Below are positions 3,755 through 50,977 of a stretch of DNA of 54,771 nt, one piece after another (positions within the stretch are counted from its first letter, which is position 1; each line of letters opens with the position of its first letter). The notes under the pieces were generated by a model that was not told the DNA's origin, did no database searches, and saw nothing but the letters and a program-made list of their open reading frames with translations. A program made the position numbers and the translations under genes. Source of the stretch: Acidobacteriota bacterium. Its GTDB lineage: Bacteria > Acidobacteriota > HRBIN11. The DNA lies in contig JAUQPV010000001.1 in NCBI GenBank assembly GCA_030550225.1, positions 1 to 54,771 on the forward strand, in the 5' to 3' direction.

Positions 3755-3823
3755 GTCCTGCGCTGCATTTTACCCGACACCCGGCACTTACCACCCGACA
3801 CCGAAGTCGAGGAGGTCGTCCTG

Positions 3824-4447
3824 ATGGAACCCTTCCGACGCCATACCGGTATCGTCGTGCCCCTGGACCGGTCCCATGTCGACACGGACCAGATCATGCC
3901 CAAGCAGTTCTTGAAGCGCATCGAGCGGACCGGCTACGGGGAGTTCCTGTTCTTCCACTGGCGGTACCGACCCGACGGTCGACCCGACCCGACGTTTGAA
4001 CTCAACGGGCCTGCATATCAGGGCGCCACGATCCTGGCGACGGGCCGCAACTTCGGATGCGGCTCCTCCCGAGAGCACGCCGTATGGGGCCTGAAAGACT
4101 ACGGTTTCCGGGTCCTCATCGCTCCTTCGTTCGCCGACATCTTCTTCCACAACTGCATCCAGAACGGCCTCCTGCCGGCGGTCGTGACAGAAGAGGCCGC
4201 CCGGGCCATCATCGACCGGGCCCGGACCCAGCCCGGATGGCGACTTACGGTCGACTTAGAGCGTCAGATCCTCTCGGACGAGGCTGACCTGTACATCGAG
4301 TTCCATATCGACCCCCAGGCCCGGGAACGACTCCTGAACGGGTGGGACGACATCGACCTGACCCTCCTCCGGGAGGACCGCATCCGTGCCTACGAACGAC
4401 GACGACCCAAGTGGCTCCCCCGTGTCAGTCAGCCATCAGGAACATAG
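3824..4447 (+). CDS. leuD: 3-isopropylmalate dehydratase small subunit
   Basis: MEPFRRHTGIVVPLDRSHVDTDQIMPKQFLKRI...GRNFGCGSSREHAVWGL is typical LeuD. GAGGAGG RBS; the gene follows leuC. Confidence 0.92.
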   Translation: MEPFRRHTGIVVPLDRSHVDTDQIMPKQFLKRIERTGYGEFLFFHWRYRPDGRPDPTFELNGPAYQGATILATGRNFGCGSSREHAVWGLKDYGFRVLIAPSFADIFFHNCIQNGLLPAVVTEEAARAIIDRARTQPGWRLTVDLERQILSDEADLYIEFHIDPQARERLLNGWDDIDLTLLREDRIRAYERRRPKWLPRVSQPSGT

Positions 4448-4480
4448 GCAGTCGGCGGTCGGAGGTGCGAGGCGCGGGAA

Positions 4481-4590
4481 GATTGCGAATTGCGAATTTC
4501 GGATGTCGAATTGGGGAACGGGGACGGGGAAAGCCCCGGCGTGCACCCTGGATTCCCGGCGCCTAAATCCGCGATCCGCAATTCGCATTC
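4481..4590. repeat. Inverted repeat with tandem-heptamer arms (GCGAATT/GCGGATT type) in the leuD-proC spacer
   Basis: Left arm 4481-4516 is gattGCGAATTGCGAATTTCGGATGTCGAATTgggg. Right arm 4566-4590 (aaatccgcgatccgcaattcgcattc) is its imperfect reverse complement. The loop is about 50 nt. Confidence 0.8.
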
Positions 4591-4828
4591 ATCTTGCATA
4601 CCCGATGTGCATATTTTAAGACGCCCGCATAACTGCGTGCGCTCGGTGTTTGTGACGCCGTCATGACCGGCGGCGTCAGGATAGAGGACGCCGGCATAAC
4701 TGCCGGCGTTCGGAAATACATTGCATGGATAGGTCGTGACCAAAACGCGCACGTCGGGTCTGCATCGTGTATCCCGACTCATGGCCCTGCCTCGTGCATC
4801 CTATAAGCTCATGCCGGGAGGGCTCACG

Positions 4829-5650
4829 ATGTTCCAAGACAAGCGCATCGCCGTCATCGGCGTCGGCAAGATCGGCGGTGCCCTTATCGCCGGCCTCCTC
4901 CAGAGCGGCATGGTCCGGCGGGAGGCCATCGCCGGGAGTACGGGCCATGCGGAGACGGCCCGTCGAGCGGCCCAGACTTACGAGATCCCTGTCCTGACCG
5001 ACAACCGGGCCCTCGTTCGGGACCGAGACATCATCATCCTGGCCGTCAAACCCCAGACCATTCGAAAAGTCGTCGCCGAGGTCCGGGACCTGATCACGCC
5101 GGACCGGTTGGTCGTCACCCTGGCGGCCGCCACGCCGACGGCCCGAATCGAAGAGGTCTTGGAACGGCCTGTTCCGGTCGTGCGAGCGATGCCCAACATG
5201 CCCTGCCTCATACAGAAGGGGATGACCGTCCTGTGCCCGGGCCGTTATGCGCAAGAGACCCACGTCCAGATGGCCTACGCCCTCTTTCAGCCCCTGGGCC
5301 GGGTCGAGGTCATCGACCACGAAGACCTGATGGACGCCGTGACGGCCCTCTCGGGAAGCGGGCCGGCGTATGCCTACATCATCATCGAGTCGCTGGCCGA
5401 GGGCGGCGTCAAAGTCGGCCTCCCTCGAGACCTGGCGACGACCCTGGCGGCCCAGTCTCTCCTGGGCGCGGCGGCCATGGTCCTGGAAACCCGGGAGCAC
5501 CCGGCCCGCCTGAAAGACGAGGTGACGACCCCGGCCGGCGTGACCATCGACGGCATCATGGAACTCGAAGACGGTGGCCTTCGCGTGACCCTCATCAAGG
5601 CCGTCGACCGGGCGACCCGGAAGTCCAAGGAGCTGTCCCGCGTCCATTGA
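4829..5650 (+). CDS. proC: pyrroline-5-carboxylate reductase
   Basis: MFQDKRIAVIGVGKIGGALIAGL is a Rossmann GxGxxG N-terminus. ...AMPNMPCLIQKGMTVL...SGSGPAYAYIIIESLAEGGVKVGLPR...TTPAGVTIDGI are typical ProC motifs. GGGAGGG RBS. The ORF start at 4736 runs through the upstream repeat region and is not favoured. Confidence 0.9.
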   Translation: MFQDKRIAVIGVGKIGGALIAGLLQSGMVRREAIAGSTGHAETARRAAQTYEIPVLTDNRALVRDRDIIILAVKPQTIRKVVAEVRDLITPDRLVVTLAAATPTARIEEVLERPVPVVRAMPNMPCLIQKGMTVLCPGRYAQETHVQMAYALFQPLGRVEVIDHEDLMDAVTALSGSGPAYAYIIIESLAEGGVKVGLPRDLATTLAAQSLLGAAAMVLETREHPARLKDEVTTPAGVTIDGIMELEDGGLRVTLIKAVDRATRKSKELSRVH

Positions 5651-5767
5651 GTAGGGCACAAGGCCAATACCCGGATGCTATGCTCTGTGCGCTATGCCCT
5701 TTGCGCTTTGCTCTTTGCCTTCTTCATCTCTCCCCTCAAACCGGGGATGGGTTCGGGGCGCCCACTC

Positions 5768-5796
5768 TTGACAGGCGCGGGGTGAAAACTTATTTT
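5768..5796 (+). promoter_or_regulatory. Candidate sigma-70 promoter (TTGACA-N17-TATTTT) about 370 nt upstream of gltB
   Basis: TTGACA at 5768-5773, a 17-nt spacer, then TATTTT at 5791-5796. No annotated gene lies immediately downstream. Confidence 0.3.
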
Positions 5797-6163
5797 TGAG
5801 GCGGTACCCGATATCCCCCTGAAGGGAGGCCAAGCATGGAATCTGCAGACCGTCGTCGGGTCCATGGCTTCTCTGGATTTGCTTCCTCTTCGATTTTCCC
5901 CCTCTCGCCGTCCCCGCGAGTTTGGGTCCTGCGTCTGGTCCTGCATAGGCCGGCCCGGGCCGTCCGGTAAGCCGGCACTTCATCGCCGCACGCGTCCCTG
6001 CGGACTCCTTTGGCAGGTCTGATCGCCTCGGAATTTTTAAATTTTAATTCTTTATTAGTGCATTTATTTTATAAAACTTGGAAAAGGCACGACCCAGCCA
6101 TCCAACACCTAAGGCCCAACACCGAACTCTACCCGCCCCGCTCCACGACTTCGGGAGGTACAG

Positions 6164-9100: not shown

Positions 9101-10687
9101 CCGGGCGTCGCCCTGATCTCGCCGCCACCCCATCACGACATTTACAGCATCGAGGACCTGGCTCAGCTCATCTATGACCTCAAGGCGGTCAACCCCCGTG
9201 CCCGAGTCGGCGTCAAGCTCGTCGCCGAAAGCGGGGTCGGGACCATCGCCGCCGGCGTCGCCAAGGCCTATGCCGACTACGTCCAGGTCGGGGGGATGGA
9301 GGGCGGGACGGGCGCTTCGCCCCTGTCGTCCATCAAGAACGCCGGCTGTCCCTGGGAACTGGGCCTGGCTGAGACTCAGCAGGCCCTCATCCGGAACGGT
9401 CTCCGGGGTCGGGTCCGTGTGCGGGTCGACGGAGGGTTCAAGACAGGCCGAGACGTCATCGTGGCGGCCCTCCTCGGGGCCGAGGAGTTCGGATTCGGAA
9501 CGGCCGCCCTCGTGGCGATGGGCTGTAAGATGGCTCGCCAGTGTCACCTGAATACGTGTCCGACGGGGATCGCCACCCAACGGGAGGACCTGATCCGGGA
9601 GCGCTTCCGGGGAACGCCCGAGGGCGTCATTCGGTTCTTTACCTTCATCGCCGAGGAAGTCCGGCGATGGCTGGCCGCCCTGGGCTACCGGCGGCTGGAA
9701 GAGGTCGTCGGCCGCGTCGACCTGCTTCGGCCCCGGGCCCAGGTCGACTGTCCCCGGGCGGCGAAGCTGGACCTGACACCGCTCCTGGCCGACGTGGCCG
9801 CTGAAGACTCCGAACCCCGCCGGTGTGTCCAGGACCGGAACGACCCGCCCCATCCAGTCTTCGACGAGCGCGTCCTGGCCATCATCCGGCCGGCCCTCGA
9901 AAAGGGCGAGCCGGTCGTCTATGAGGGATCCGTCCAGAATTCGGACCTGACCGTCGGGGCCCGCATCGCTGGCGAGATCGTCCGGCGCCACGGCCTCCGG
10001 GGCCTGCCCCCACGAACCGTCGAACTTCGGCTCCGGGGCGCGGCCGGCCAGAGCTTCGGGGCCTTCTGCGTCGAGGGCCTCCGGCTGGTCTTAGAGGGCG
10101 AGGCCAACGATTACGTCGGCAAGGGCATGAGCGGCGGCGAGATCGTCATCCGGCCCCCGTCGAATGCGACCTTCCGGCCGGAAGAAAACGTCATCGTGGG
10201 GAACACGGTCCTCTACGGTGCCACAGGCGGCCGGGTCTTCATCGCCGGTCGGGCCGGTGAGCGGTTCGCCGTCCGCAACAGCGGGGCTGTCGCCGTCGTC
10301 GAGGGCGTCGGCGACCATGCCTGCGAGTACATGACCCAGGGTTGCGTCGTCGTCCTGGGGCCGACGGGATGGAACTTCGGGGCCGGCATGAGCCACGGCC
10401 GGGCCTATGTCTACGACCCGGCCGGCGAGTTTCCCGATCGGTGCCACGCCGAATGGGTCGTCGCCCGGCGACTGGAGCTCGACCGGGCCGAGGAGCTCCG
10501 AAGCCTCCTCCAGGACCACTGGGCGGCGACGGGAAGCCCTCGGGCGGCGGACCTGCTGTCCGCATGGCCGGCCTGCGTCGGCGACTTCTGGGTCGTCGAA
10601 CCGAAGGCGGCCCCGGCCGTCGCTCCACCGCCGGAGACGACCGAGCAAGCCGAACCCGTCCCCGTCCGCGTCCGCCGCCCGACATAG
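6164..10687 (+). CDS. gltB: glutamate synthase large subunit (GltB-type, about 1500 aa); no gltD-like small subunit is adjacent
   Basis: The N-terminal amidotransferase Cys (...REQDACGVGFVVRLDG), the FMN/Fe-S domains (...GGTGASP..., CHLNTCPTGIATQ) and the C-terminal GXGXG beta-helix (GNTVLYGATGGRVFIAGRAGERFAVRNSG) are all present. GGGAGG RBS; the start is GTG 6164 or ATG 6167. Confidence 0.95.
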   Translation: MMGTPVRRPTPLYDPRREQDACGVGFVVRLDGQKTHEVVRTAIEAVVRLSHRGALDADARTGDGAGILVRLPRPFFAREAVRLGLHISSLHQLAVAMVFLPSDPAAAAEARRVFMRAFADRQLQVLGWRPVPVCPDVLGDRARRDCPTIEQALIVPATDLTGVDYERRLYLARKTAEARWRAGSIDGAYVVSCSHRTLVYKGLLAAKQLAAFYPDLSDPDFASDFAIFHQRYSTNTLPSWPLAQPFRFLAHNGEINTLTGNVLWMQAREADLAASVWGPDGDVLRPVVVPGGSDSAMLDNVLELLVLSGRNVLHAVRLLIPEAWEHRRDLPPEWRAFYDFHAGVMEPWDGPAAIAFTDGRYVGALLDRNGLRPLRYQVLRDGWLIAASEAGVIDGPPERILHRGRLGPGDIIAVDTATGTLLQKTEIMDRLTAARPYAHWVRRRFRFQPGRPPQTFGPVPEPLTRWQRAFGWTHEDVRMVVQAMAEQGQDLVWSMGDDTPLAVLSSRRRPLTFYFKQRFAQVTNPPIDPLRETLVMSLDVYLGPRPNFLEESLDHVRAVHLTSPILSEADLAALLQSAPLRYRTLGCYFPADDPARLAPALEALLQEAEKAVDDGAELLVLTDRCIGPDRAPIPMLLAVSAVHHHLIRRGKRLQTDIVVETGAVWDIHHAALLIGFGASAVCPYLLFATARHLATHERNLGGLSPEEAVERCRRALEKGLLKIMAKMGISALRSYRGAQVFEILGLAHEVVERYFPHTPARLGGVSLTDIAEDVLAWHRAAFQASAASDRLPDIGYIRYRGDGEFHAFHPEMVRALHRAVETGDWEDYERYLEVLRKAPPHTLRDLLEVVSDRPPVPLEEVEPAEDIIRRHFVVSGMSLGALSWAAHRTLAIAMNRLGARSNCGEGGEDPAWYRPQAGGDRADHRVKQVASGRFGVTTEYLVRADELEIKIAQGSKPGEGGQLPGLKVSAFIARIRHTVPGVALISPPPHHDIYSIEDLAQLIYDLKAVNPRARVGVKLVAESGVGTIAAGVAKAYADYVQVGGMEGGTGASPLSSIKNAGCPWELGLAETQQALIRNGLRGRVRVRVDGGFKTGRDVIVAALLGAEEFGFGTAALVAMGCKMARQCHLNTCPTGIATQREDLIRERFRGTPEGVIRFFTFIAEEVRRWLAALGYRRLEEVVGRVDLLRPRAQVDCPRAAKLDLTPLLADVAAEDSEPRRCVQDRNDPPHPVFDERVLAIIRPALEKGEPVVYEGSVQNSDLTVGARIAGEIVRRHGLRGLPPRTVELRLRGAAGQSFGAFCVEGLRLVLEGEANDYVGKGMSGGEIVIRPPSNATFRPEENVIVGNTVLYGATGGRVFIAGRAGERFAVRNSGAVAVVEGVGDHACEYMTQGCVVVLGPTGWNFGAGMSHGRAYVYDPAGEFPDRCHAEWVVARRLELDRAEELRSLLQDHWAATGSPRAADLLSAWPACVGDFWVVEPKAAPAVAPPPETTEQAEPVPVRVRRPT

Positions 10688-10815
10688 TCCTTCCGACGTC
10701 GCGCTATCGCCGCAGCGACATGCTGGGACGGCCTCCCACAGGAACGACTTCGGGAGGCGTCCGTGCCCTGTCCGGGACTGCCGGTTATAATAAGGTGCTT
10801 TCGGAGGTCAAAGTC

Positions 10816-11442
10816 TTGCTACGGCTTCAGAAGGTAGTCATCGAGAATTACAAGGGCATCGAGCGGGCCGAGTTGGAGCCGGCCCGCGACGTGACATTGA
10901 TCATCGGCATCAACGGCGCCGGCAAGACCTCCTTGGTGGAAGCCATCCGTCTGCTGGGAGAGCTCACCCAAGGAAGCGACACACGATGGCTAAAGATGCT
11001 CTTTGCGACTCGGTCTCGGGAGGGGTTCGTCGGTTGCCTTCCTTGGAGGGAGCCGACCCGAGAGATGGCCTGGACCGTCACGGCCATTATGGAGGACGAC
11101 TCCGAAGTAGAGTACCGGCTCACCTTGGCGGCGAATCCGGTCGGTGACCCCACCGTGGCGAAAGAGGAATTTCGGTTAAACGGGGAAGTTCAGGTCCGCT
11201 GGGACCCAAAGCAAAGTGCTTGGGTCTCGGGAGAGCAAATTCTAATGGGTATGGTGCCGCCGCGCCTTTCGGAGGACCTCGTAATCGGGAGGACTGGACA
11301 AAGGTTATACTCCTATTCGATGACAATCAGAGGGACAAGGTCTCCCAGAAGGCTTCGACGGTCCGACCGGGCGACTTGCCTGGCGTTCCGATATGCGTCC
11401 TTTTTATCCCCTATATGCATGCGTGGGTCAAGGACATGCTGA
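10816..11442 (+). pseudogene. AAA/ABC-type P-loop ATPase N-terminal fragment (OLD/abortive-infection-like), apparently truncated or decayed
   Basis: TTG at 10816 follows GGAGGT. LLRLQKVVIENYKGIERAELEPARDVTLIIGINGAGKTSLVEAIRLLGE resembles the N-terminus and Walker A of AAA_15/AAA_21/OLD-type ATPases. No Walker B or signature motif follows in any frame. The three frames between 11.2 and 11.7 kb are broken, and local GC is visibly lower than the flanks. Confidence 0.45.
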
Positions 11443-11701
11443 ATCCAAGCGATGCGGCAGAATTAGACCGACGGCCTCGAGGGCAAAGATACGGCTAAAC
11501 GTCTGGAGACTTATGATTCCATCAACGATCCGACTTCTGTTCTTCAGGAACTTCGGGAGGCCCTGCAATGTCAATGCAAGCGGGGCCGTCACTTTCCGGA
11601 CGATTTCCGTCCCTCCGGGTCCCGACGTCGACCCGGCAGAAGGCGGTAATTTTCCGCTGAACGGATGACAGGACGATGGGACAGCACTTGGAGAGAAGTC
11701 G

Positions 11702-13859: not shown

Positions 13860-14416
13860 GGGGACTTTCTCCGCACTGTTCGCAAGATAAGTCGTCGGGC
13901 CGGGTCAGTCAAGCCGCCGGGGCTGTAGGGATGGGAAGGGCCGTCGCATCAGGTCCGAGGCGGCCCTCGGGAAGAGGCGAATCGGCTCGACGGATTTCCT
14001 GCCCCTCGCTTGCGGGCCCTCCCCCGCCGCCACCGCCGGGACTCGATGGCCACCACCTCAGGGTAGACGCCTCCCGCCCACCCGCATCGGGGTCTCGGCG
14101 TACGGCCACCCGCCGCCGAAAACGTCGTCGTGCGCACCCGCCGTCTCGACCGGCGGAACGTCTGGACTTCTCTAACAAACTCCGTGCCATCCGGACGTTT
14201 GGGTTCCCGGACCGCTCGGCCTCACGCTTTCGACCCCCAGACCCCGGGAAGGGCCCTCTCTGCGTGTTTACCCGCATGAACACTTTGTCTAACCGTTTGG
14301 ACAAGCGATGACTCCTGTCTCGACTGAATGAAGTAGGACACCGGAGACGAGTTTAGGGATTTAAACACGTCTTGTTGTTGTCCTCGGGCGGCCAGCTCCT
14401 GGCTTCCTCGGGTTTC

Positions 14417-17052: not shown

Positions 17053-17265
17053 GATGCGAATTGCGAATTGCGGATTGCGGATTGGGGAGTCCGGATCGGG
17101 TAGACGGGAGCCCTTCGGGACCCCGAGAGTCGTCCCGACGTCTCTCTTGTCGGACGCCGCCAGTAACGGGGGCGTCGAAAACTCGGAACGCCGGCTGTCA
17201 TGCGGACGTCCTCTCCGTCGTCCGCTTGAAGGATCCACTTACCCCATTCGCAATCTGCGAATGGA
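17053..17265. repeat. Inverted repeat with tandem-heptamer arms (GCGAATT/GCGGATT type) in the dnaG-hfq spacer
   Basis: Left arm 17053-17087 is gatGCGAATTGCGAATTGCGGATTGCGGATTgggg. The right arm at about 17242-17265 (ccccattcgcaatctgcgaatgg) is an imperfect reverse complement. The loop is about 150 nt. The unit matches the 4.5 kb locus. Confidence 0.75.
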
Positions 17266-18660: not shown

Positions 18661-18940
18661 CGGCCCATCCTCAAGCATATGGCGAACAGCGAACGCCAAA
18701 TGGCGAATAGCAAACGGCGACCTATCTGCCGACCTGCCCACCCCTATCCCATCCGGCACCTTCGGGAGGGGAGCCGCAAAGGAACGAATCGATGGAGTCC
18801 TACCTCATCAACAAGGATAAACAAGGATAAACGGCCAGCTGGGTATCGCCTTTGCGTCCGAGGAAGCTTATACTACAATGGACACTCGGCCGCTTCCAAG
18901 GCCCCTGTCGGGAAGGACAGGCCGAGACCGGGTGGAGACG

Positions 18941-20705: not shown

Positions 20706-20864
20706 GAAATTCGGCAGTCCGACAGTTCGGCAATCCGGCAGGTGGGCGGCCACGGAAGAGGAGGCGGAAGATAAGACGGCGGGTTTTGTCAGGGCCTCGG
20801 TCTTGGGCCTTCTATGCCTATCTGCCGAATCCCGAACTGCCGAACTCCCGAATTGCCGGATTCC
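20706..20864. repeat. Inverted repeat with tandem-octamer arms (TTCGGCAG/CTGCCGAA type) in the SGNH-priA spacer
   Basis: Left arm 20706-20742 is gaaattcggcagtccgacagttcggcaatccggcagg. Right arm 20822-20864 is ctgccgaatcccgaactgccgaactcccgaattgccggattcc. The loop is about 80 nt. Confidence 0.8.
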
Positions 20865-27080: not shown

Positions 27081-27319
27081 CGTCGCCTCCTCGAATCGAT
27101 GGGAGTGGCCGACGTCGGCCCGGTCAGGGGCCTGAGCCGACGGATGGCCGGAACGGTCCCCCCAGGACGTAGGCGAAATCATTGTATCGGAACCCATGTT
27201 CGATTGCAACCTTTTCCCGAGAGTCCTAAACTTAACCCGAGCTGTAGGCCTGGGGTCGGCGAAGGGCGAAGGGTGAGGAGAGACCGGTCTGTCACGATTC
27301 GCCGTTCGCCATTCTCGGT

Positions 27320-27672
27320 GGGGGCGAACAGGTTTCGACGGAGGTGCGTGGGAGGACAGGTGGCATGCCGTGGGCCTGTCCGCTCGTCAACTGGACAGGG
27401 GCCAATAAGTGCCAACACTGATCTCGCCCTGGCGGCTTAACCGATAGCCGTCACGCCGCCAGACGGGCGCCCGTCCCGTCTGGACCGGTGTCATATTACG
27501 GGCTATGGCGCCGGGTGCGCCTCGGTCCTGGCGTCGAGATCGAAGGGGCTGGTCCCCGCCTTGACCCTGCCCGTCGGGGCCGGCGGGGACGAGAGGTAAA
27601 AGACGGGCTAAGCATGTAGAAGCCTGTCCGACTGGCCTCCGGACGCGGGTTCGATTCCCGCCGCCTCCACCA
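27320..27672 (+). ncRNA. ssrA: tmRNA (SsrA)
   Basis: The 5' end GGGGGCGAACAGGTTTCGACGGAGG pairs with the 3' end ...GGACGCGGGTTCGATTCCCGCCGCCTCCACCA (T-arm, acceptor stem with G:U at position 3, CCA). The tag reading frame is GCC AAC ACT GAT CTC GCC CTG GCG GCT TAA (27411-27440), encoding ANTDLALAA, and is preceded by AATAAGT. Confidence 0.9.
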
Positions 27673-29846: not shown

Positions 29847-29952
29847 GGCCATTCAGGAGATGGGCTCAGTGCCGGGATACCGACATCACCGAACGTCTGC
29901 CGTCTTTCCCGGACGGTCCGGCTCCCGGACTGCCGGACCGCCGGACTGCCGG

Positions 29953-30822
29953 ATGGCCGAACTGCCGAACTGGCGGTCGGCCCTGGAGGCCCTGGCCCGT
30001 CGGTTTCCTCGGCCCCAGACGCCCTGGGACGACCCCCTGGCCTTCGTGTATCGGTACGAAGACACCCGGGACCGGGCCGTCGTCGCCTACCTCGTGAGCT
30101 TTCTGGCCTTCGGCCACGTGCGGGCCATCGCCCGGGCCGTCGAGCCCCTCCTCGACCGACTCGGCCCCCGGCCGAGCCAGGCCCTCGTCGAGGCGTCTCC
30201 GACCGACCTGCGTCGGTGGGTCCACGGGTGGCGCTATCGCTTTATCCCGGCCGAAGCCCTCTACGGAATCCTGGCCTGGATTCGAGATCGGCTCGATCGA
30301 TGGGAGTCGCTGGAGGCTTACTTTCGGGCGCAGGTCGAGGGGTCCCCTTCGCTTCGGGATTTTGCCGAGACCCACGGTCAGGCCGGTCGCCAATTCTTTC
30401 AGCGCCGCGTCCCGGACGTCCCGCGGGTAAAGGCCCGGTTTCTCTTCCCGGTCCCACCCCGGAGTGCGTGCAAACGCCTGGCCTTGTTCATCCGGTGGAT
30501 GACCCGCCCGGCACCGCCCGACTTGGGTCTATGGGATTTCTGGCCTCGGGCCTGGGTATTCGTCCCAGTCGATACCCACCTGGCCTTCCTGGCTCGCCTG
30601 TGGGGCTGGGCCGACGGACGTGTCCCCGACTGGACCTTCATGGAGCAGGTCGCTTCCGTCTTGGCCGCCCTCTGTCCGGAAGACCCGCTTCGGTACGATT
30701 ACGCCATTACCCAGCTGGGGATCCGCCGTCTCTGTCATCGCCGGCCGGAGCTTCGGCGGTGTGGGGTATGTCCCATGCGGAGCGTTTGCCCCTATCCGGC
30801 TGGAAGCGATCCGTCTGGGTGA
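29953..30822 (+). CDS. DUF2400/TIGR02757-like protein (HhH-GPD-like fold with a C-terminal Cys cluster)
   Basis: Family recalled from ...FLFPVPPRSACKRLALFIRWMTR...VPVDTHLAFLARLWG... and a terminal CHRRPELRRCGVCPMRSVC. The start is uncertain because 29925-29975 is an octamer-repeat arm. Confidence 0.5.
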   Translation: MAELPNWRSALEALARRFPRPQTPWDDPLAFVYRYEDTRDRAVVAYLVSFLAFGHVRAIARAVEPLLDRLGPRPSQALVEASPTDLRRWVHGWRYRFIPAEALYGILAWIRDRLDRWESLEAYFRAQVEGSPSLRDFAETHGQAGRQFFQRRVPDVPRVKARFLFPVPPRSACKRLALFIRWMTRPAPPDLGLWDFWPRAWVFVPVDTHLAFLARLWGWADGRVPDWTFMEQVASVLAALCPEDPLRYDYAITQLGIRRLCHRRPELRRCGVCPMRSVCPYPAGSDPSG

Positions 30823-32526: not shown

Positions 32527-33900
<1,374 letters not shown>

Positions 33901-33933
33901 TGTTCGGGATGCGGGATGGGGGGAGGGGTAAGG

Positions 33934-36003: not shown

Positions 36004-36055
36004 AGCCAGGCACTAAGGCAATAGGCAGTAAGGCAATGACCGACTGGAGGCCTGC

Positions 36056-37117: not shown

Positions 37118-37295
37118 CGTTCGGTGTTGGGTCTTGGGTGCTGGGTGTCCGGTATGAAAGACCCCAGACCACCGACCATAGACCTGTTTCGGAGGCCTGG
37201 TTCGCTTCGTCTCGAGACGGGGTACTCCAATGACTCCGTCAGGTCTATGGTCTGACGTCTTCTTTGGACCTAACACCCGACACCGAACACCGAAG
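37118..37295 (+). repeat. About 180-nt structured repeat element, copy 1 (G-rich heptamer arm, conserved core, C-rich arm)
   Basis: Arms are at 37118-37152 (cgttcGGTGTTGGGTCTTGGGTGCTGGGTGTCCgg) and 37266-37295 (ggacctaacacccgacaccgaacaccgaag). The core ggtatgaaagacc...caccgacc...ggttcgcttcgtc..gagacggg...gactccgt..ggtct..ggtctg is shared with the reverse complement of 43137-43300. The element fills the whole convergent gap 37118-37297. Confidence 0.8.
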
Positions 37296-37297
37296 AC

Positions 37298-40150
37298 CTA
37301 TTCGTGGCACTCCTGACAGACCTTCGGGTCGGGGCGGAGGCGGCCGGCCGCGTGACAGGTCCCGCAGGCCAGGTCTAAGTCCTCGGGACTGGCATGGAGG
37401 CGATGCGGAAACGTGCGTCCGTCGGCCAGCCGGAGGTCGCCCGGCGGTCCGAGGCCGTGACAGTCCTGACAGGCCCGGCGGACTTCCGGGGCGTGGTGGC
37501 AAGGGCCGCAGGCCAGGCCCGGTCGCAGGACCTCGGCGGGTTCCCGGACTTCGTGGGGCCGATGGCAGGTCTCACACGCCAGGGCCTGGACGGTGATGTG
37601 CTTCGCATGGGAAAAGGTATAGCCCCGATAGGGAGCTGTCTGAAGTTCGATCCCCTGGTGACAGTTCATGCAGGAAGACGTATAGGGGACCTGCACCCAA
37701 GCTGGGAGACGGACCGGACGGCCTCGGACGGTCTCTTGGACCTGCCGGTAACTCCAGGCCAACAGGGCCAAGGCATAGTCGGGATTGTGAATCCCGTTAG
37801 CCTGGCGGAGGAATTCAAGGTTCGCCTTTACGTCTTGCAAGACCGGGGCGGCGGGTGCCCAGCGGACGGCCGATGCATAGGCCGTCTCGACGTCCCGCAG
37901 GGCCCGTTCGAGTACGACCTTCCACTGGAGATAGATCTTCCGGTACCGGGTCCCGTGGCAGGCCATACAACTGACTTCGTTGGCCCGCCGGAGGCCACCC
38001 CGGGCCGCGTGTTCGAGGAAGTGACATCCCTCGCAGTCGACGCCCGTCAGGAACATCTTGCTGGGTCGGGGCGGAACGCCCTTCCCGCCGAGGCCGGCGT
38101 ACAGGTCCCGGGTGGGAGCGTGGCCGCTCAAGTGGCATCGCTCGCACGCCGTGGCGGCCGGCGTCAGGGGGAGACGACCATGCTGAATTTCCTGATGGCA
38201 GTCGGTGCACTCGACTTTATGTTCCGTCACGTGCTGATGGTGGAGGTAGGCTTCATCCCCGAACCGGGCCAGTCGTTGCGGCTCGTTGTGACAGGTCAGA
38301 CAGCGCTCCCGGGGGACGGCTCCCTCGCCCCGGATGCTCTTCTGATGGCACCACACGCACTCCATCCCGAAGCGCCGAACGTCGCCGTGGTCGAAGCGGA
38401 CGCCCTGGGCCTCGACGGGTCCGGAGGGCGGAATGTGGCAGAGCTCACATCGGGCGGGTCCGGTGCCCAAGCGTTGGTTCTTGAAGTGGCACAGGAAGCA
38501 CGTCGATTCGGTGACCGTGATGTGAAGGCCCTGGACGATCTGGGAGTGGCAGGACGTACAGCGGAGCCGCATCCCCCGCCGGAGTTCCAGAAGGTGGGGC
38601 GCATGGTCGAAGACGATGTCATGGAAGACTTCCTTTCCTTGAAGCAAACGCCGTTCGTGACACCGCAGGCAACTGGCATCTTCGACCTCGGCCCAGGGGT
38701 TCGGCCCGTAGGTCTGAGTGATGTACTGAGCGGCCATCGAGAGGGCCTCGTACTTCTTCCGGAATTCGGACGTGATCCCCGGAGGGATGTGGCAATCTAC
38801 GCAGGGGACGTTCCGATGGGTCGACGCCTTCCAGGACTGATAGTAGGGTTGCATGACGTGGCAAGAGCCGCAGAAGGCCGGCGTCGAGGTCACCTGCATC
38901 AACAAGAAGACCGTCAACAGGAGACCGCCCAGGCCGACCATCAACCAGAGGGCACCCCATCGGACGCTTCCCCGCTCGTCGGGGGGACCCTCCGGCGGCT
39001 TCTCGCCAGAAAGGCCGGCCCGTCGGATCTCCAAGAGGGCCACCGTCAGGAGGAGGTAAAACCAAAAGGCGATGAGGAGAAACCGTTGGGCCGTCCGATG
39101 ACCCCGCCAACGCTGGACCTCGCTCCGGATCTCACTGGCGATGGAACGGACCTTTCGGGTCTCGGCCTCGATATCCCCGACCTGCAGGCTGTGGACGACC
39201 GGCTGGACGCCGCTCAGGAAGGTCCGAGCCTCTTCCAGCCGCTCCTCCATCGCCCGGGTCGGGACGCCGACGGCCCGGGCCGCCTCGAGGGCCGTCTGGG
39301 CTTCTTGGAGGTCGGCGGTGGCCGTCCTCAGGAGGGTCTGGATCTCGGCGGCGACCTTCATGGGTCGTTGGCCGGTCTCATGGCACTTTCCGCAGACCTC
39401 CACGAGCCGTTCGGGGTTGACCCGGGTGGTCGCATGGTTGTCATGACAGGCCACGCAGGCGGGCAGGCCCCGGCTTAGAAAGGCCCGGGCGTGCGGGCTC
39501 TGGAGGAACATTTCCATGGACCGGGTATGGCACAACCCGCAGACTTCTGAGACTTCCCGAACGCTGGGCGGGGCGGCCCCATGCTTGCCATGGCAAGTCG
39601 CACAGTGAGGCGCCCGGGGATGGCCCGAGGCCAGCGCCTGGAAGTGAACGCTGGCGCGGTACTGGTCCACGACATCGGCCGATAGGCCGTACCGCTCCAT
39701 AAGCTCCTTTTGAGCGTGACACCGACCGCAGGTCTCGGCAACATTCTCTCGATAGACCCGGCTTCGGGGATCTTGGGCCGGTCGGATGTCATGGGTCCCG
39801 TGGCAGTCCGTACAGACGGCGACCCGGGTATCACCTCGGGCCAAGGCCTGCCCATGATACGAACTCTGATAATACAGGTACTGGTCAATAGGTATGTTGA
39901 AGGGCCGCATCCGCTCCGGGTCGCTGTGGCAGTCGGCGCAGAGCCGGGGGATTTGAGACCGCTCGGGCACGCCCCGGAAGTCTTTCCCGTGAGCGGCCTC
40001 CATCTCGAGCGGGCCCTCGACGCCGCCGTGGCAGGCCGTACAGGGCACGCCCTTACGGCTATGGGCATCTTCCGCAAAGCGAGCCTTCAATTCGCTGTGG
40101 CACGTCAGACATGTGGACGCCAGCATGAGGACGAAGACGGCCGCATTCAT
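37298..40150 (-). CDS. giant multihaem cytochrome c with 27 CxxCH: an N-terminal 9-haem domain, a TM hairpin, then a NapC/NirT/NrfH-like segment and further haems (18 CxxCH)
   Basis: The start MNAAVFVLMLASTCLTCH (ATG at 40150) lies just after the cytochrome b stop. The first 355 aa are paralogous to the 11-haem protein (shared blocks GDTRVA.C.DCH, DPRS.VY, VCGLCHT, SPHA.AF). Two TM helices map to about 38891-39085. Next comes TSTPAFCGSCHVMQPYYQSWKASTHRNVPCVDCHIPPG (NapC/NirT-like), then 16 more CxxCH up to the terminal CQECHE. Confidence 0.85.
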   Translation of the reverse strand: MNAAVFVLMLASTCLTCHSELKARFAEDAHSRKGVPCTACHGGVEGPLEMEAAHGKDFRGVPERSQIPRLCADCHSDPERMRPFNIPIDQYLYYQSSYHGQALARGDTRVAVCTDCHGTHDIRPAQDPRSRVYRENVAETCGRCHAQKELMERYGLSADVVDQYRASVHFQALASGHPRAPHCATCHGKHGAAPPSVREVSEVCGLCHTRSMEMFLQSPHARAFLSRGLPACVACHDNHATTRVNPERLVEVCGKCHETGQRPMKVAAEIQTLLRTATADLQEAQTALEAARAVGVPTRAMEERLEEARTFLSGVQPVVHSLQVGDIEAETRKVRSIASEIRSEVQRWRGHRTAQRFLLIAFWFYLLLTVALLEIRRAGLSGEKPPEGPPDERGSVRWGALWLMVGLGGLLLTVFLLMQVTSTPAFCGSCHVMQPYYQSWKASTHRNVPCVDCHIPPGITSEFRKKYEALSMAAQYITQTYGPNPWAEVEDASCLRCHERRLLQGKEVFHDIVFDHAPHLLELRRGMRLRCTSCHSQIVQGLHITVTESTCFLCHFKNQRLGTGPARCELCHIPPSGPVEAQGVRFDHGDVRRFGMECVWCHQKSIRGEGAVPRERCLTCHNEPQRLARFGDEAYLHHQHVTEHKVECTDCHQEIQHGRLPLTPAATACERCHLSGHAPTRDLYAGLGGKGVPPRPSKMFLTGVDCEGCHFLEHAARGGLRRANEVSCMACHGTRYRKIYLQWKVVLERALRDVETAYASAVRWAPAAPVLQDVKANLEFLRQANGIHNPDYALALLAWSYRQVQETVRGRPVRLPAWVQVPYTSSCMNCHQGIELQTAPYRGYTFSHAKHITVQALACETCHRPHEVREPAEVLRPGLACGPCHHAPEVRRACQDCHGLGPPGDLRLADGRTFPHRLHASPEDLDLACGTCHAAGRLRPDPKVCQECHE

Positions 40151-40161
40151 GCCGACCTCGT

Positions 40162-41136
40162 TCAATAATAACTTCCGACCCACGCCAGGGCGATATACCC
40201 CAGCGCCGCCATCAAGGCCCACCACCGGAGGGTTCCCCGCCGCCGATCGTCCAGCCAGGGCAAAAGGGTCCAAAAGGCCAGTAACGCCAGAAAACCCCAT
40301 CCCAGGACCCACCCCGGCGTCCGAGGTTCCAGCCACTGAAGAGGTCGAAAATACCAGGGTGCCCGGGTCACGGGTGGCGGATGCAGGACGTCGGCGACTT
40401 CTGGATGGAGAGGCGGGGCCAAGACGGCCAGGGTCGTCAGGCCGCCGACCCACAGCAGAAGGGCGCTTAGACCCCAGTGGACCCAATCCGGGTAGACCGG
40501 CCGACTCAGACTGGGCCGCCGGAGTCCGGACCGCAGGGAGACATACACATGAGTAAAGGTCAATGCGATGAAAAGCCCGGGCAGGGCCGAAACGTGCAGG
40601 AAATAAAAGCGCGTCAAGGTATCCTGCGTGACGTCGGTCCCGCCGACGAGGAAGGAAAAGAGGGCCCCGAGCCCCGGGAGTCGACGGATCTCTTCCAAGG
40701 CCCGAACCGTCGTCCAGAGGGCCGTCTGGCTCCAAGGCAGGAGGTGACCCGTCACGTCCGAGAGGACCAGCAGGACCAGAAGACCCGTCCCGACGAGCCA
40801 TTGACCCCGAAGGCGCAAGTAGTCCCGCTGGACTAAGATCCCCAGACCATGAAGAACGGCAAGCCCCATCAAGACATAGGCCCCCCAGTGATGGACCGAG
40901 TGGATGACCTCCCCCAAGAAGACCCGATAGCGGATGAGGTTCACGCTCTCGAAGGCCCGTTCGACCGTCGGCCGGTAGTAAAAAGCCAGCAAAGCCCCCG
41001 TGAAGGCCTGGACACCGAAGCCCAGCAGGAGGAGAAGACCCGGGAGGTGATGCCATCCGAAGGCCCACCGGGTCGTCCGCCACGAACGCGGTATCCAGCT
41101 CCGGAAATCGCCGCCTTTCCGCTGCTTGAAAGACAT
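40162..41136 (-). CDS. cytochrome b (bc/b6f-type), copy 2, divergent
   Basis: Bis-His haem ligand pairs VHHWGAYVLMGLAVLH and FLHVSALPGLFIALTFTH; GHLLPWSQ. The Qo-site PEWY position reads APWYFRP. Length 324 aa. Confidence 0.85.
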   Translation of the reverse strand: MSFKQRKGGDFRSWIPRSWRTTRWAFGWHHLPGLLLLLGFGVQAFTGALLAFYYRPTVERAFESVNLIRYRVFLGEVIHSVHHWGAYVLMGLAVLHGLGILVQRDYLRLRGQWLVGTGLLVLLVLSDVTGHLLPWSQTALWTTVRALEEIRRLPGLGALFSFLVGGTDVTQDTLTRFYFLHVSALPGLFIALTFTHVYVSLRSGLRRPSLSRPVYPDWVHWGLSALLLWVGGLTTLAVLAPPLHPEVADVLHPPPVTRAPWYFRPLQWLEPRTPGWVLGWGFLALLAFWTLLPWLDDRRRGTLRWWALMAALGYIALAWVGSYY

Positions 41137-41223
41137 CGACCCTACTCCATCACTTCGTCGTCACTCCGTCATTTCGTTCCTCCATCACTCCGTTACTTTG
41201 TCGTCAGCCCATCACCTCCTTCC

Positions 41224-43115: not shown

Positions 43116-43300
43116 GATTTCGACCCTTCGAGCAATCGGTGTTGGGGGCTGGGTGTTGGGTCCAAGGAGACTACAGACCCCAGACCGAACGGAGTCGTCG
43201 GAATAGCCCGTCTCAGGACGAAGCGAACCTGACCCCCGGAATAGGTCGGTGGTCAGTCGTCCGTGGTCTTTCATACCAAATACCTACCACCCGACATCTC
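43116..43300 (-). repeat. About 180-nt structured repeat element, copy 2 (inverted relative to copy 1)
   Basis: The reverse complement of 43137-43300 aligns with 37118-37295 over the arms and core (see copy 1). A left flank gatttcgacccttcgagcaatcggtg is shared with 50081-50118. Confidence 0.8.
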
Positions 43301-44460: not shown

Positions 44461-44475
44461 TACCCCACCGCTACA

Positions 44476-44721
<246 letters not shown>

Positions 44722-44724
44722 CCA

Positions 44725-46221: not shown

Positions 46222-46240
46222 GGTGGCCCTCCTTCTTCCA

Positions 46241-46389
46241 GGATGCAAGGCGCAAGATGCAGGATAGGGACTTTGGATATCGATGAATCCCGGGCGTGGT
46301 ATCCGACATCCGGGCACCTCTCGTCGAAGCCTGGCTTTAGTCCCCTCCCCTCCTGCATCCTGTACCCTGCATCCCGCATCGTGCATCCC
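46241..46389. repeat. Inverted repeat with tandem-heptamer arms (GATGCAG/GATGCAA type)
   Basis: Left arm 46241-46269 is ggatgcaaggcgcaagatgcaggataggg. Right arm 46349-46389 is cctcctgcatcctgtaccctgcatcccgcatcgtgcatccc. It lies between the porin gene and cytochrome c copy B. Confidence 0.8.
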
Positions 46390-46538
46390 GAAATAAAAGA
46401 GCGGCCCCTTCCCGCACAGCCGTGCAGGAAGGGGGCGGGTAGTGGGGGGGGTGCTGGATTCCTTGCCTTCCCGACGACTCCGACGTCTACTCCATCGTCC
46501 CTCGACCAATGCTTCATTTCAACGGGAGTAACGGAGCA

Positions 46539-48869: not shown

Positions 48870-48881
48870 GGCCTCCCTCCT

Positions 48882-49868
48882 TCAGCGGGCTAATATTTTG
48901 CCGGATGGATGGTTGCTTCCGTGGATTTGGGAATGGCAGTTCAGACAGTTCCGGTAGAAGGCTCGGTTGTTCAACGCTTGATACGCCGAGAGTCCCTGAG
49001 CGGCCTGCTGAGGATTCAAAGCATACAGCCTACCCGGGTGGCCGCTATTGGAATGACAACTCTGGCACAGGAAGGGCGTCTTCGACACCAAAAGCTTGGT
49101 ATGGGACGATCCATGCGGTGTGTGGCAAGTCCCACAGCTTTCCGTCGCCGGGGGGTGCTCCCACAGGAAGGGACCCCGCTTTTCCGCATGACACTCGTAG
49201 CACTTTTCATTGATCGAATTGGCGGCGATTAGCTTGTCGGTCACCGTACCGTGGGGGTTGTGACAGCTCGTGCACTCCATCCGGCCTTCCCGAACGGGAT
49301 GGTGAGAATTCTTGAGAATCTCGGCCTTCACCTGCTGATGACACGTCGTGCAGGTCTCGACCTCCGTCGGCTTGGCCAGATTCTTCGGATAGCCGCTATG
49401 GACGCTGTGGCAGTTCGTGCAGGCCAAATTCCGACTTTCGTGAGGACTCCCATGCCAGAGGGCGACCTTCGTCGTCATCGTCTCATGACAGCTCAGACAG
49501 ACAGCGTTCCGCTCCTCGACCGAGAGCTTCGACTTCGGACCCAGGACCCGAATCGAGACGTTGGCCGATCCCGTCGGAGCGGCGGAGCTGTCCCCATTCC
49601 CGGGGACTTCGCCGCCTTGCTCCTTCACGTGCGCCGCCCCGGGGCCGTGGCAGGTCTCGCACCCGAATTTGGCCTCCGGCGTGCGCTTGTCTTCCTTCAC
49701 GCCGTGGGTGGTCTGGATGTAACTCTGGTAGTACGGTGCGTGACACTCGCGACACGCCTGCGTGCCCACGTAGCCCTTCGCTGGGGGAGCTTCCTGGGCT
49801 GCCGGAACCGACGCCGTGAGGAGGAACCCGACCAGACATCCGATGAGGATGAAAATCTTTGGCTTCAT
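48882..49868 (-). CDS. MtrA/DmsE/PioA/MtoA-family periplasmic decahaem cytochrome c
   Basis: Signal peptide MKPKIFILIGCLVGFLLTASVPAAQ. Exactly 10 CxxCH in about 330 aa: CRECH, CETCH, CLSCH, CTNCH, CTTCH, CTSCH, CYECH, CGTCH, CQSCH, CLNCH. GGAGGGGG lies before the ATG at 49868; an alternative ATG is at 49883. Confidence 0.85.
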   Translation of the reverse strand: MKPKIFILIGCLVGFLLTASVPAAQEAPPAKGYVGTQACRECHAPYYQSYIQTTHGVKEDKRTPEAKFGCETCHGPGAAHVKEQGGEVPGNGDSSAAPTGSANVSIRVLGPKSKLSVEERNAVCLSCHETMTTKVALWHGSPHESRNLACTNCHSVHSGYPKNLAKPTEVETCTTCHQQVKAEILKNSHHPVREGRMECTSCHNPHGTVTDKLIAANSINEKCYECHAEKRGPFLWEHPPATESCGTCHTPHGSSHTKLLVSKTPFLCQSCHSNSGHPGRLYALNPQQAAQGLSAYQALNNRAFYRNCLNCHSQIHGSNHPSGKILAR

Positions 49869-50109
49869 CACCGCCCCCTCCATTCCCTAAAATCGGATGG
49901 TCTCTGTATCCTACAATTTCCGTTCCAAACCCCCTGAAAGTCGGGGTGCCGGGCCGTAGGAAGCGCATCGGGTGGAAATAGGCAGGTCGGCCGATCATGG
50001 CTCATAGCGGATGGCTTAGAGTCCTATGAGCTATGACCTATGAGTGCATCCGAGCCGTTCGGTTCGTGAAAACCCGCATGGATTCGGCTTTTCCGACCCT
50101 TCGAAAAAT

Positions 50110-50200
50110 CGGTGCTCGGTGCTGGGTGTTGGGTGTTGGGTGTTGGGTTCTTGAAAAAGGGACCTAACACCTAACACCGAGCACCCAGCACCCAACACCC
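50110..50200. repeat. Tight hairpin with GGGTGTT-heptamer arms; the G-rich arm is a canonical G-quadruplex motif
   Basis: Left arm 50110-50150 is cGGTGCTCGGTGCTGGGTGTTGGGTGTTGGGTGTTGGGTTC. Right arm 50161-50200 is gacctaacacctaacaccgagcacccagcacccaacaccc. The loop is 10 nt. GGGTGTTGGGTGTTGGGTGTTGGG lies at about 50124-50147. Confidence 0.85.
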
Positions 50201-50471
50201 ATTCTGTCTGAAAAATCGTGCTTCCCGGCCCATGGAAAAGGCCGTCCCGACGCCATTCTCCCGAACCGAACGGCCTTACTAAGCTATCTGCCTCCGTCCC
50301 TTGCCTGCGCGAAATCACCCATAGGTGGGTGATTTCACCCGCGGTCCTACGGAAGGGGCGAGCCAATTGCTTTGTTGTGATCGGAGTGGACGCCACGGGC
50401 CGACGGAGACGTCGGCCCGCAGGCCGGAGGCCTGTGCCACCGCTTTATTGCGACAGACTTACTGCAAAACG

Positions 50472-50804
50472 TTACTGACGCCGCAGGAAGGCTACGAGAT
50501 CTCGAATTTCCTGTTCGGTCAAGGAGATGCGGGGCATTGGCGGAAACCCCGGGTTGCGGGGCCGGCGTCCGGTCTGGCGGTAGACGATCTCAGGGTCGGT
50601 GAGCCACAGTTCCAGCATAGTGGCGTCATAGCGGCGGCCGACGCCCCGCAGGTCAGGACCTGCCTTGGGGCCTTGGCCGATCGTGTGACAGTAGGGGCAT
50701 CCCCGCTCCTGAAAGACCCGTGCCCCCCGTCGGGGGTCGCCCGAGGCACATCCGAAGCCCAGGACGACGATCAGACAACCCAGGCTCCAAGCCCGTCGCC
50801 CCAT
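50472..50804 (-). CDS. monohaem cytochrome c, probable lipoprotein
   Basis: MGRRAWSLGCLIVVLGFGCASG has a lipobox-like LGFGC. It has one CPYCH and a distal PPMP Met-ligand region. The ORF extension to 50855 reads through an octamer-repeat arm. Confidence 0.75.
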   Translation of the reverse strand: MGRRAWSLGCLIVVLGFGCASGDPRRGARVFQERGCPYCHTIGQGPKAGPDLRGVGRRYDATMLELWLTDPEIVYRQTGRRPRNPGFPPMPRISLTEQEIRDLVAFLRRQ

Positions 50805-50816
50805 TTGGTTCCTCAG

Positions 50817-50977
50817 TTTGGGAATTCGGCATCCGGCAGTTCGGGAGTTCGGCAATTCGGCAATTTGGGAATTCAGCCCTGCGGGGGTTTGATTCGGCCG
50901 TGGCCAGATATACTTGCCTTGACCGTAGGTCCGGCTGATCTCTACCCCTCTCTATCCCGGACTGCCGAACTCCCGAA
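50817..50977. repeat. Inverted repeat with tandem-octamer arms (TTCGGCAG/CTGCCGAA type)
   Basis: Left arm 50817-50876 is tttgggaattcggcatccggcagttcgggagttcggcaattcggcaatttgggaattcag. The right arm 50956-50977 (cccggactgccgaactcccgaa) is shorter. It lies in the divergent cytochrome c / hydrogenase spacer. Confidence 0.75.

Follow-up and report, generated by a model that had tools for sequence, protein, structure and literature searches.

Genomic context and repeat elements of the window

The window analysed here is contig C196, a stretch of 54,771 nt, of an Acidobacteriota metagenome-assembled genome (MAG) of 2.79 Mb in 385 contigs with 64% G+C (the source genome, G000). The gene content includes leuA/aconitase-type genes, gltB, dnaG, priA, multihaem cytochromes and an MtrB/PioB porin, and the DnaG protein shares 89% identity with its counterpart in "Acidobacteria bacterium SKYB104". 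Between these genes lie palindromic elements built on one plan: both arms consist of 3-10 copies of a 7- or 8-nt word, and the G- or purine-rich array stands 5' on either strand. The paired arrays probably represent a large class of non-coding, palindromic, selfish and unstable intergenic elements and not dedicated regulatory sites. Elements of this kind are known, with precedents in Xanthomonas and Geobacter; the present genome adds many word families, carriage by a MITE (miniature inverted-repeat transposable element) and a link to genes of the PF05635 family.

Tandem arrays were called by Tandem Repeats Finder (TRF), at a score of 30 that lets through some chance arrays, and folding was assessed with ViennaRNA against 60 dinucleotide shuffles per locus. 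TRF returned period-7/8 arrays nearly everywhere the initial annotation had placed them. The paired inverted arms of tandem heptamers and octamers that it described are real: ten loci combine TRF arrays with readable partners (Table 1), and all ten fold better than their shuffles (z -2.7 to -12.0). TRF misses several second arms because of their shortness or degeneracy, and yet these are readable in the sequence (17243-17263, 27296-27312, 43277-43297, 50957-50977 and 46241-46266). In the plain hairpins starting at 4482, 17055, 20710, 27235, 46241 and 50814, the arrays themselves are the only inverted repeats. The analysis also upholds the constant architecture despite many unit sequences, and the positions named for the hairpins: the ends of operons, divergent spacers and the interior of the cytochrome cluster.

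Single arms had also been proposed. Those at 5676, 29925, 36015 and 41146 were confirmed by TRF, the one at 18679-18720 directly adjoins a C-rich array of another word family, and the one at 3771-3807 is very degenerate; the six show no folding excess in the same shuffle test (z -1.5 to +1.1). The analysis further revealed features beyond the initial annotation: (i) the strict G/purine-first polarity; (ii) heterologous pairs; (iii) the PF05635 link; (iv) an additional array at 33885-33922 (GATGCGG, five units). Both peptides that had been named as spurious ORF (open reading frame) extensions are present, PNCRTAEF at 20707-20730 on the - strand and MAELPNW at 29953-29973 on the + strand, the latter inside an octamer array.

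Table 1. Tandem-word elements of the window, with folding scores (z) and settings
Element	Position	Arms and units	z	Setting
Hairpin	4482-4587	(GCGAATT/TCGGATG)x4.6, 4482-4513; (AATCCGC)x3.1, 4566-4587; loop ~52 nt	-3.3	between two + genes
Hairpin	17055-17263	(GCGAATT/GCGGATT)x4.3, 17055-17088; CCCCATTCGCAATCTGCGAATGG, 17243-17263; loop ~155 nt	-3.2	divergent spacer upstream of dnaG
Hairpin, octamer arms	20710-20858	(TTCGGCAG)x3.8, 20710-20741; (CTGCCGAA)x4.8, 20822-20858; loop ~80 nt	-5.1	between two - strand genes, priA downstream
Insert with hairpin, 78 nt	27235-27312	(GGCGAAG)x2.3 ... (ATTCGCC GTTCGCC); TRF array 27258-27273	-4.0	ends 8 nt upstream of tmRNA gene
D-type nested hairpin, ~185 nt	37119-37298	outer (GGGTGTT-type)x4.3 and (AACACCG-type)x4.4; inner (AGACCAC/GACCATA) and (TATGGTC); conserved core; TRF arrays 37119-37148, 37159-37184, 37268-37298	-7.0	
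D-type copy, inverted, more degenerate	43138-43297	core 79% identity; TRF array 43138-43161	-2.7	
Hairpin	44472-44721	(GATGCGA/GATACGA)x6.6, 44472-44517; (TCGCATC/TCGTATC)x6.0, 44680-44721	-7.2	arms flank half a MITE-A frame (~44530-44600; inner anchor 44571-44594) and octamer words
Hairpin	46241-46388	(GATGCAR)x~3.5, 46241-46266; (CTGCATC)x5.4, 46351-46388	-4.6	upstream of mtrB/pioB-like porin gene
MITE-A copy	50044-50284	terminal inverted repeats 50050-50069 and 50259-50278; central hairpin (GGGTGTT)x4.4, 50109-50148; 13-nt loop; (AACACCC)x5.7, 50162-50201	-12.0 (central hairpin)	
Hairpin, octamer arm	50814-50977	(TTCGGSAR)x6.6, 50814-50874; short partner CCGGACTGCCGAACTCCCGAA, 50957-50977	-3.4	
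Heterologous convergent pair	18679-18745	(GGCGAAY/AGCGAAC)x~6, then directly CCTATCTGCCGACCTGCCCACC of another word family; sequence reading		cannot form a hairpin
Single C-rich array	5677-5718	(GCTTTGC/GCTATGC)x6	-1.5	kept in G001
Single octamer array	29909-29976	(CCGGACTG)x8.5		overlaps gene start
Single G-rich array	33885-33922	(GATGCGG)x5.1		15-nt gap region between two + genes
Single array	36008-36037	(AGGCAATA/AGGCACTA)x3.9		between cytochrome genes
Single C-rich degenerate array	41144-41216	TCACTCCG/TCACTTCG type; TRF part 41144-41194		upstream of 27-haem cytochrome gene
Very degenerate C-rich array	3771-3807	ACCCGAC type; under TRF threshold; sequence reading only	no folding excess	

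Abundance and architecture in the genome

In the source genome TRF yields 344 and 252 rows per Mb at periods 7 and 8, against 56 and 55 at periods 6 and 10. For periods 7 and 8, the corresponding figures from an order-3 Markov simulation are 30 and 61 rows per Mb, which the genome exceeds about ten- and fourfold; the enrichment that the initial annotation had proposed to look for is thus present. Merging of the rows results in 1,552 arrays, one per 1.8 kb, with 318 canonical words, the most frequent being GGGTGTT (134), CGGCAGTT (72), GCGGATT (63) and GCGAATT (61). About two-thirds of the arrays lie outside crude gene calls, and about a quarter of the intergenic spacers in the genus carry such elements. 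The assemblies break at arrays: 82 of the 770 contig ends have an array within 150 nt. In the SKYB104 assembly, the contig bearing dnaG ends exactly at the repeat locus orthologous to 17055-17263.

The comparison covered a sister species (G001), whose genes are about 91% identical to those of the source genome, and two other genomes (G002 and G003). The sister species has an equal array density with different dominant words: GACCATA is the commonest and GGGTGTT is absent. Samples from a second genus of the family hold a few long single arrays, and four more distant Acidobacteriota that were sampled show no period-7/8 spike. The elements are therefore genome-wide and, at such density, limited to the genus.

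Inverted pairs were counted among neighbouring arrays of equal unit length not more than 400 nt apart. There are 145 inverted and 6 direct pairs, with gaps that fall into two groups of 10-20 nt and 40-200 nt. The 5' arm has more G than C in 137 of the 145 inverted pairs and in 34 of 37 word families. When polarity is taken by purine skew, the count is 132 versus 11, and the exceptions by G skew (GACCATA, AGACCAC) are purine-rich. Among all array neighbours less than 250 nt apart, irrespective of word, 204 are arranged as +-, 24 as -+, 39 as ++ and 37 as --. There is a weak correlation between the lengths of the two arms (rho 0.34), which differ by a median of one unit, and 71% of the long loops are repeated elsewhere.

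Carriers of the hairpins

Some hairpins are carried and copied by an IS5-derived MITE, while others are multicopy elements that end in arrays. The first carrier, MITE-A, is an element of about 240 bp with 20-nt terminal inverted repeats (TIRs; CAGAGCCGTTCGGyyCGTGA) at both ends and 4-bp YTAN target duplications. The source genome contains 337 matches to the TIR and 152 inner anchors, corresponding to about 150 frames, and the frame was seen in this genus only. Besides the GGGTGTT module, whose loop is found both ways round within one orientation of the frame, it hosts at least eight further ones at its centre, all of them consisting of paired tandem-word arrays. The mobility of MITE-A is shown by an insertion in the sister species (G001 C1:223491-223749), which is flanked by an ATAA duplication and lies inside a (GATGCAG)n array; the site is empty in the source genome. 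The MAG holds a single IS5-family transposase gene (DDE_Tnp_1, in two frames; G000:C251:73-1010). At its left end about 66 nt match the MITE-A end with 80-87% identity; no right end was found, and the gene is absent from the assemblies of G001-G003. The contig C251 is possibly chimeric.

The second carrier, the D-type family, has about 29 copies in the source genome. Their similarity extends precisely to the outer limit of the arms, each of four heptamer units in conserved order, so the arrays are the termini of the element. The octamer hairpin at 50814-50977 has about eight full-length relatives in the source genome and up to 75 matches to the arm only.

The initial annotation had considered MITE relics or REP-like (repetitive extragenic palindromic) sequences. 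The idea holds in part, since the hairpin at 50110-50200 forms the centre of MITE-A, with its TIRs and 4-bp duplications, and the loci at 37118 and 43137 belong to the multicopy element of about 185 nt. The search for a REP-associated tyrosine transposase (RAYT) gave one weak Y1_Tnp match (27 bits, contig C103), unlinked to arrays, and the arrays have no conserved GTAG/CGTC tag; REP and bacterial interspersed mosaic elements (BIMEs) are defined by a 20-40-bp imperfect palindrome bearing this tag and by a cognate RAYT gene, and an association with them was rejected.

Further small elements are nested in or near the hairpins. An element of about 100 nt, which has the TIR GAACTCATCTCAAAA and a hairpin core rich in GC, sits in the loops or interiors of other hairpins (G000:C89:492-751, C316:9165-9264 and C96:4077-4299); one of these insertions is missing from the sister species. 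A REP-like double-hairpin element (GTAGTAGCGCAATTyATTGCGC...) with a GTAG duplication lies at G000:C326:3393-3494. The REP-like element GTAGTAGCGCAATT... is a family distinct from the arrays.

Turnover between sister species

The window aligns collinearly with G001:C1:289042-342858 (85-96% identity); each break falls at a repeat-bearing spacer. The spacers at 4437, 15014, 18671, 29264, 41129, 43101 and 44466 differ in their elements between the two species, whereas arrays common to both (17055, 20710, 37119) differ by indels of 6-9 nt. In a 394-kb alignment of the two genomes the lengths of array indels peak at the unit length, and the aligned blocks hold 46% of the arrays versus 68% of the intergenic bases. 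Elements thus appear and disappear between sister species, and their arms change by gain and loss of whole units. The related genomes compared are non-independent samples.

Individual loci illustrate both processes. The hairpin at 17055-17263 is kept, with 6-7-nt (one-unit) indels in both arms; at 20710-20858 the left arm of the sister species is one 8-nt unit shorter through loss; the differences at 37119-37298 are unit gains or losses; and the position of the hairpin at 46241-46388 is kept. At 4482-4587 the arms of the sister species adjoin without a loop, and the spacer also contains a (GACCATA)n hairpin. The insert at 27235-27312 is missing as a single clean block and has no target duplication. 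The D-type copy at 43138-43297 is missing from a spacer of 66 unrelated nt in place of 285 nt, the heterologous pair at 18679-18745 from one of 36 unrelated nt in place of 168 nt. The counterpart of the 44472-44721 spacer contains only a 27-nt solo MITE end, and that of 41144-41216 a heterologous array pair flanking REP-like elements, of which several copies were observed between the arrays (spacer orthologous to 41129-41221).

PF05635 cassettes

Arm families are common to the hairpins and to the PF05635/TIGR02436 genes of the genus, which encode four-helix-bundle proteins (S23p, "23S rRNA intervening-sequence protein"). Matches to PF05635 number 8-10 in the source genome and seven in the sister species; there is no match on the window contig, and the window elements are ORF-less. 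Tandem arms lie on both sides of the gene in all 11 cases with both flanks available (G000, G001 and G003, with two in the second genus), with a G-rich array 29-110 nt upstream and its C-rich complement at 31-186 nt downstream. Their words, GGGTGTT, GGATTGC, GGCGAAT, CGGCAGNT and GGCAGTAA, also make up the gene-less hairpins. The window stems agree with the cassettes in having terminal inverted repeats with a stem of about 20-45 bp made of tandem words. A GGGTGTT-armed cassette of 561 nt exists in three copies of 96-97% identity and one truncated copy (C195), and its other genomic matches, including window positions 50111-50199, cover the arms only. The cassette proteins match TIGR02436, with 2GSC of X. 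campestris as the nearest solved structure, and PF05635 is regarded as Avd-like (PMC10053308).

The arrangement extends beyond the genus. Of 14 PF05635 genes sampled from 12 other Acidobacteriota, 11 lie between inverted arms of tandem 7-8-mers, and every one has a word of its own. The single PF05635 genes of Xanthomonas arboricola and Luteimonas sp. have GGGATTS arms on both sides (2/2), and STRR-like (short tandemly repeated repetitive) arms surround five of six such genes in Moorena bouillonii. Overall, 29 of 33 PF05635 genes are surrounded by tandem-word arms, as judged by eye from the tandem-repeat output and unscored against controls for the cross-phylum part. In the literature searched, no paper was found linking PF05635/TIGR02436 to heptamer-armed hairpins.

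One pair of orthologous cassettes (G000:C376:5448-6040 and G001:C13, L187) differs in the 5' arm. Every unit reads ATTGTGA in the sister species and ATTGCGG/GATTGCG in the source genome, and the 3' arm is still AATCCGC. The change is a concerted C-to-T replacement across the arm, and G:U pairing is still possible in the sense RNA of the gene.

Relation to known repeats

The initial annotation regarded the inverted-pair arrangement as undescribed; it has in fact been reported for Xanthomonas (PMC4692102) and Geobacter metallireducens (PMC2700814). Xanthomonas campestris and X. axonopodis have 70-75 convergent inverted GGGAATC pairs per genome (Rehm et al. 2015, PMC4692102), for which no association with mobile elements was reported and the PF05635 gene was not mentioned. 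Like the repeats described here, they are G-rich tandem heptamers of about four units, mostly intergenic and convergent with the G-rich strand first, and their length varies between species while the arrangement is kept. In Xanthomonas one word dominates and is discussed as a G-quadruplex former; the present genome has more than 30 word families, including octamers, and most of its words are unable to form a G-quadruplex. The array density is about ten times that of Xanthomonas, and some hairpins lie inside the IS5-derived MITE.

G. metallireducens contains paired "global regulator binding sites" of classes 1-3 (Aklujkar et al. 2009, PMC2700814), with insertion sequence (IS) elements at fixed distances. 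The shared features are pairs on opposite strands, 3-5 tandem repeats of 7-9 nt, a variable distance and several classes per genome. The Geobacter sites amount to tens of pairs and were read as sites of integration host factor (IHF) or HU without test, whereas the present genome contains hundreds.

The PF05635 cassettes of the genus have the same layout as the ORF-bearing 23S rRNA intervening sequences of Coxiella and Leptospira, which are selfish elements of about 430 nt with the S23p ORF in the loop. In Coxiella burnetii the intervening sequence (IVS) has a 28-bp terminal stem within which RNase III cuts, and tandem GACAGAT heptamers in strain-variable number (Warrier et al. 2016, PMC4990558). 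In contrast, the window elements are ORF-less and lie between protein genes.

Cyanobacterial STRR are likewise intergenic tandem heptamers of several word families, but they were mostly described as single arrays; few pairs were reported in Nostoc (PMC4692102). MITEs and REP/BIME sequences (Correia/NEMIS, REPINs) resemble the hairpins in being small, non-coding, intergenic, hairpin-forming and multicopy, with a presence that varies among relatives; arms of tandem short words are not a feature of those families, unlike here. The Foldback (FB) transposons of Drosophila have long inverted termini of tandem short repeats, in numbers that vary among copies and between the two arms, around a middle that is variable or absent. 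They are eukaryotic elements whose repeat units measure 10-31 bp and whose transposase is different, and the likeness to the hairpins is an analogy. Heptamer repeats and the idea of polymerase slippage have been reviewed by MacGregor (2015).

Particular words recur across taxa. Hairpins of the form (GGGTGTT)n-loop-(AACACCC)n were found in Pyrinomonadaceae, other Acidobacteriota, a Planctomycetota MAG and Desulfatirhabdium. Among 80 loci with at least four GGGTGYT units, a complementary array lies downstream at seven and upstream at none. (GGGAATC)5 occurs in Xanthomonadales, cyanobacteria, Thermoanaerobaculia, Gemmatimonadota and others. Perfect arrays of 5-10 units were seen in the Thermoanaerobaculia MAG JBBRDK01 (L206, L247, L256), Gemmatimonadota, Vibrio and cyanobacteria; identical words are thus common to several phyla.

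Origin and possible function

As to function and spread of the elements, we infer the following. The gene-less hairpins may be satellites or derivatives of PF05635 cassettes. Once transcribed, their 21-45-bp stem would be cut by RNase III, by analogy with the ORF-bearing 23S rRNA intervening sequences, and such cutting would make insertion inside operons tolerable; an RNase III gene (rnc) is present in the source genome. The similarity of the arms would be upheld by slippage and by recombination among arrays of the same word, and not by selection for pairing at each locus. Within the genus the elements have multiplied, partly by hitch-hiking in the IS5-derived MITE.

Several results weigh against the reading of the arrays as selfish elements spread in this manner. 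In about 60 of the 204 convergent pairs (~30%) the arms belong to unrelated word families, some only 0-22 nt apart, and are therefore unable to pair. Some hairpins, such as the insert at 27235-27312, have no other copy in the source genome and no target duplication, and these fit a local origin better than transposition; target duplications are also missing from the plain hairpin indels on C47 and C65. Between the PF05635 cassettes and the window loops there is no interior homology; apart from the truncated C195 copy only the arms are shared. PF05635 genes also occur in Acidobacteriota whose sampled DNA has no period-7/8 spike, hence presence of the gene does not predict hairpin density. In tandem spacers, mismatches compatible with G:U pairing number 102 in the sense and 88 in the antisense direction (p = 0.35), and without a sense-strand excess RNA-level selection is unsupported. 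The source genome is fragmented, and the context statistics are based on home-made, crude gene calls covering 81% of it.

A wider proposal is offered tentatively. The STRR, the Xanthomonas GGGAATC repeats, the Geobacter sites and the present hairpins could all be satellites without an ORF that belong to a single cassette family, ancient and spreading horizontally. Its Avd-like PF05635 protein would recognise the arms and mobilise or maintain them, with the purine-first polarity as its footprint.

Hairpins might instead arise in place: a quasi-palindrome with a duplicated word would grow by slippage and fold-back (hairpin-coil) synthesis, with no movement, and words would be shared through gene conversion. 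Such growth would agree with the unique hairpins without target duplications, the unit-length indels, the correlated arm lengths, the arm variants that are not mirrored in the partner arm and the hot-spring origin of the organism. Thermophilic DNA polymerases are reported, in work of 2000 by Ogata and by Ogata and Miura that is cited in PMC13061963, to elongate tandem-repeat hairpin oligonucleotides in vitro. However, the same few word families occupy dozens of loci and occur across phyla, multicopy elements have conserved cores and arm unit order, the transposition of MITE-A is bona fide, the architecture is also found in mesophiles (Xanthomonas, Moorena), and the G-first polarity is left unaccounted for. 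We regard such an origin in place as unlikely.

That the arrays are selected RNA structures, which like REP/BIME would terminate transcription in both directions, stabilise mRNA or serve as processing sites, is improbable. The predicted folding is strong, many hairpins lie just past stop codons or between genes of an operon, the Xanthomonas repeats are mostly transcribed (PMC4692102), and RNase III processing is documented for homologous IVS stems. The density of array-holding spacers is nevertheless even across spacer types, with 1.0 per kb between divergent, 1.2 between tandem and 1.0 between convergent genes, so that divergent spacers are equally dense, and a run of at least four T within 12 nt after the 3' arm follows only 12 of 143 pairs (8%). 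These two results make the terminator role suggested in the initial annotation unlikely. The missing strand asymmetry of wobble mismatches leaves RNA-level selection unsupported. The covariation of arm pairs, proposed there as a check, is also missing: complementarity is 0.848 between arms of the same locus and 0.872 between arms of different loci in the same word family, and the stems have neither a compensatory nor a wobble signature. Moreover, half of the arrays are unconserved between species with about 91% identical genes, and heterologous pairs cannot fold. Altogether, the spacer, T-run, wobble and covariation tests give no support for selection of the arrays as terminators or as RNA structures, or for binding sites linked to promoters.

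It is more doubtful whether the arrays are binding sites of a global DNA-binding protein, with one protomer per 7-8-bp word, as in the IHF/HU-type proposal of Aklujkar et al. The iterated short words, the strict orientation and the pairing on opposite strands at variable distance, as in classes 1-3 of G. metallireducens (PMC2700814), would suit such a protein. It would, however, need as many binding specificities as there are unrelated word families (more than 30), the words differ at the same locus between sister species, there is no link to promoter-bearing spacers, and a period of 7-8 bp puts the sites off one face of the DNA helix.

Highly improbable, finally, is the reading of every pair as a healed double-strand break or excision site, at which the two 3' ends had been extended with G-rich repeats and then joined head to head in the way of a telomere-telomere fusion: it predicts the G-first convergent polarity (204 versus 24), the unequal arm lengths, the unrelated junction "loops" and the heterologous pairs, but the four genomes G000-G003 have no RVT_1 reverse transcriptase, which speaks against telomerase-like repeat addition and leaves no candidate enzyme, and multicopy elements with conserved loops and unit order, as well as PF05635 genes inside loops, speak against it.

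Whatever mechanism is favoured, three rules apply to it: (i) convergent G/purine-first polarity, even for non-complementary arms; (ii) no locus-specific covariation; (iii) no preference for a spacer type. PF05635 provides a concrete candidate partner protein; it is among the commonest small "hypothetical" genes and a relative of Avd, the accessory protein of diversity-generating retroelements (DGRs). Tandem heptamers in bacterial genomes have been unexplained since 1990, and the question is now testable. In practical terms, the elements shape gene starts, operon spacers and annotation through spurious ORF extensions, and break the assembly at about one-tenth of contig ends.

Other differences between the sister species

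Several blocks of the window differ between the two species apart from the tandem-word elements. A 772-nt block at 10682-11453, with a clean junction, is missing from the sister species and contains an ORF start with the P-loop-like motif GINGAGKTS; it resembles a fragment of a gene that was inserted recently or truncated. A second block, of 370 nt (14026-14395), is also missing there. Its first ~185 nt (core 14006-14190) correspond to a separate, non-heptamer multicopy element with many copies in G001 and G002 at 77-91% identity.

An Rfam 15 search of the window at gathering score matched no hairpin locus, and its sole match was the transfer-messenger RNA (tmRNA) gene at 27320-27672 (180 bits). 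The tmRNA gene of the sister species (G001:C1, near 315220-315562) carries, in the T-arm region immediately ahead of the 3' end (...TCCCGCCGCCTCCACCA), an inserted block of 343 nt that may be an integration scar or an intervening element.

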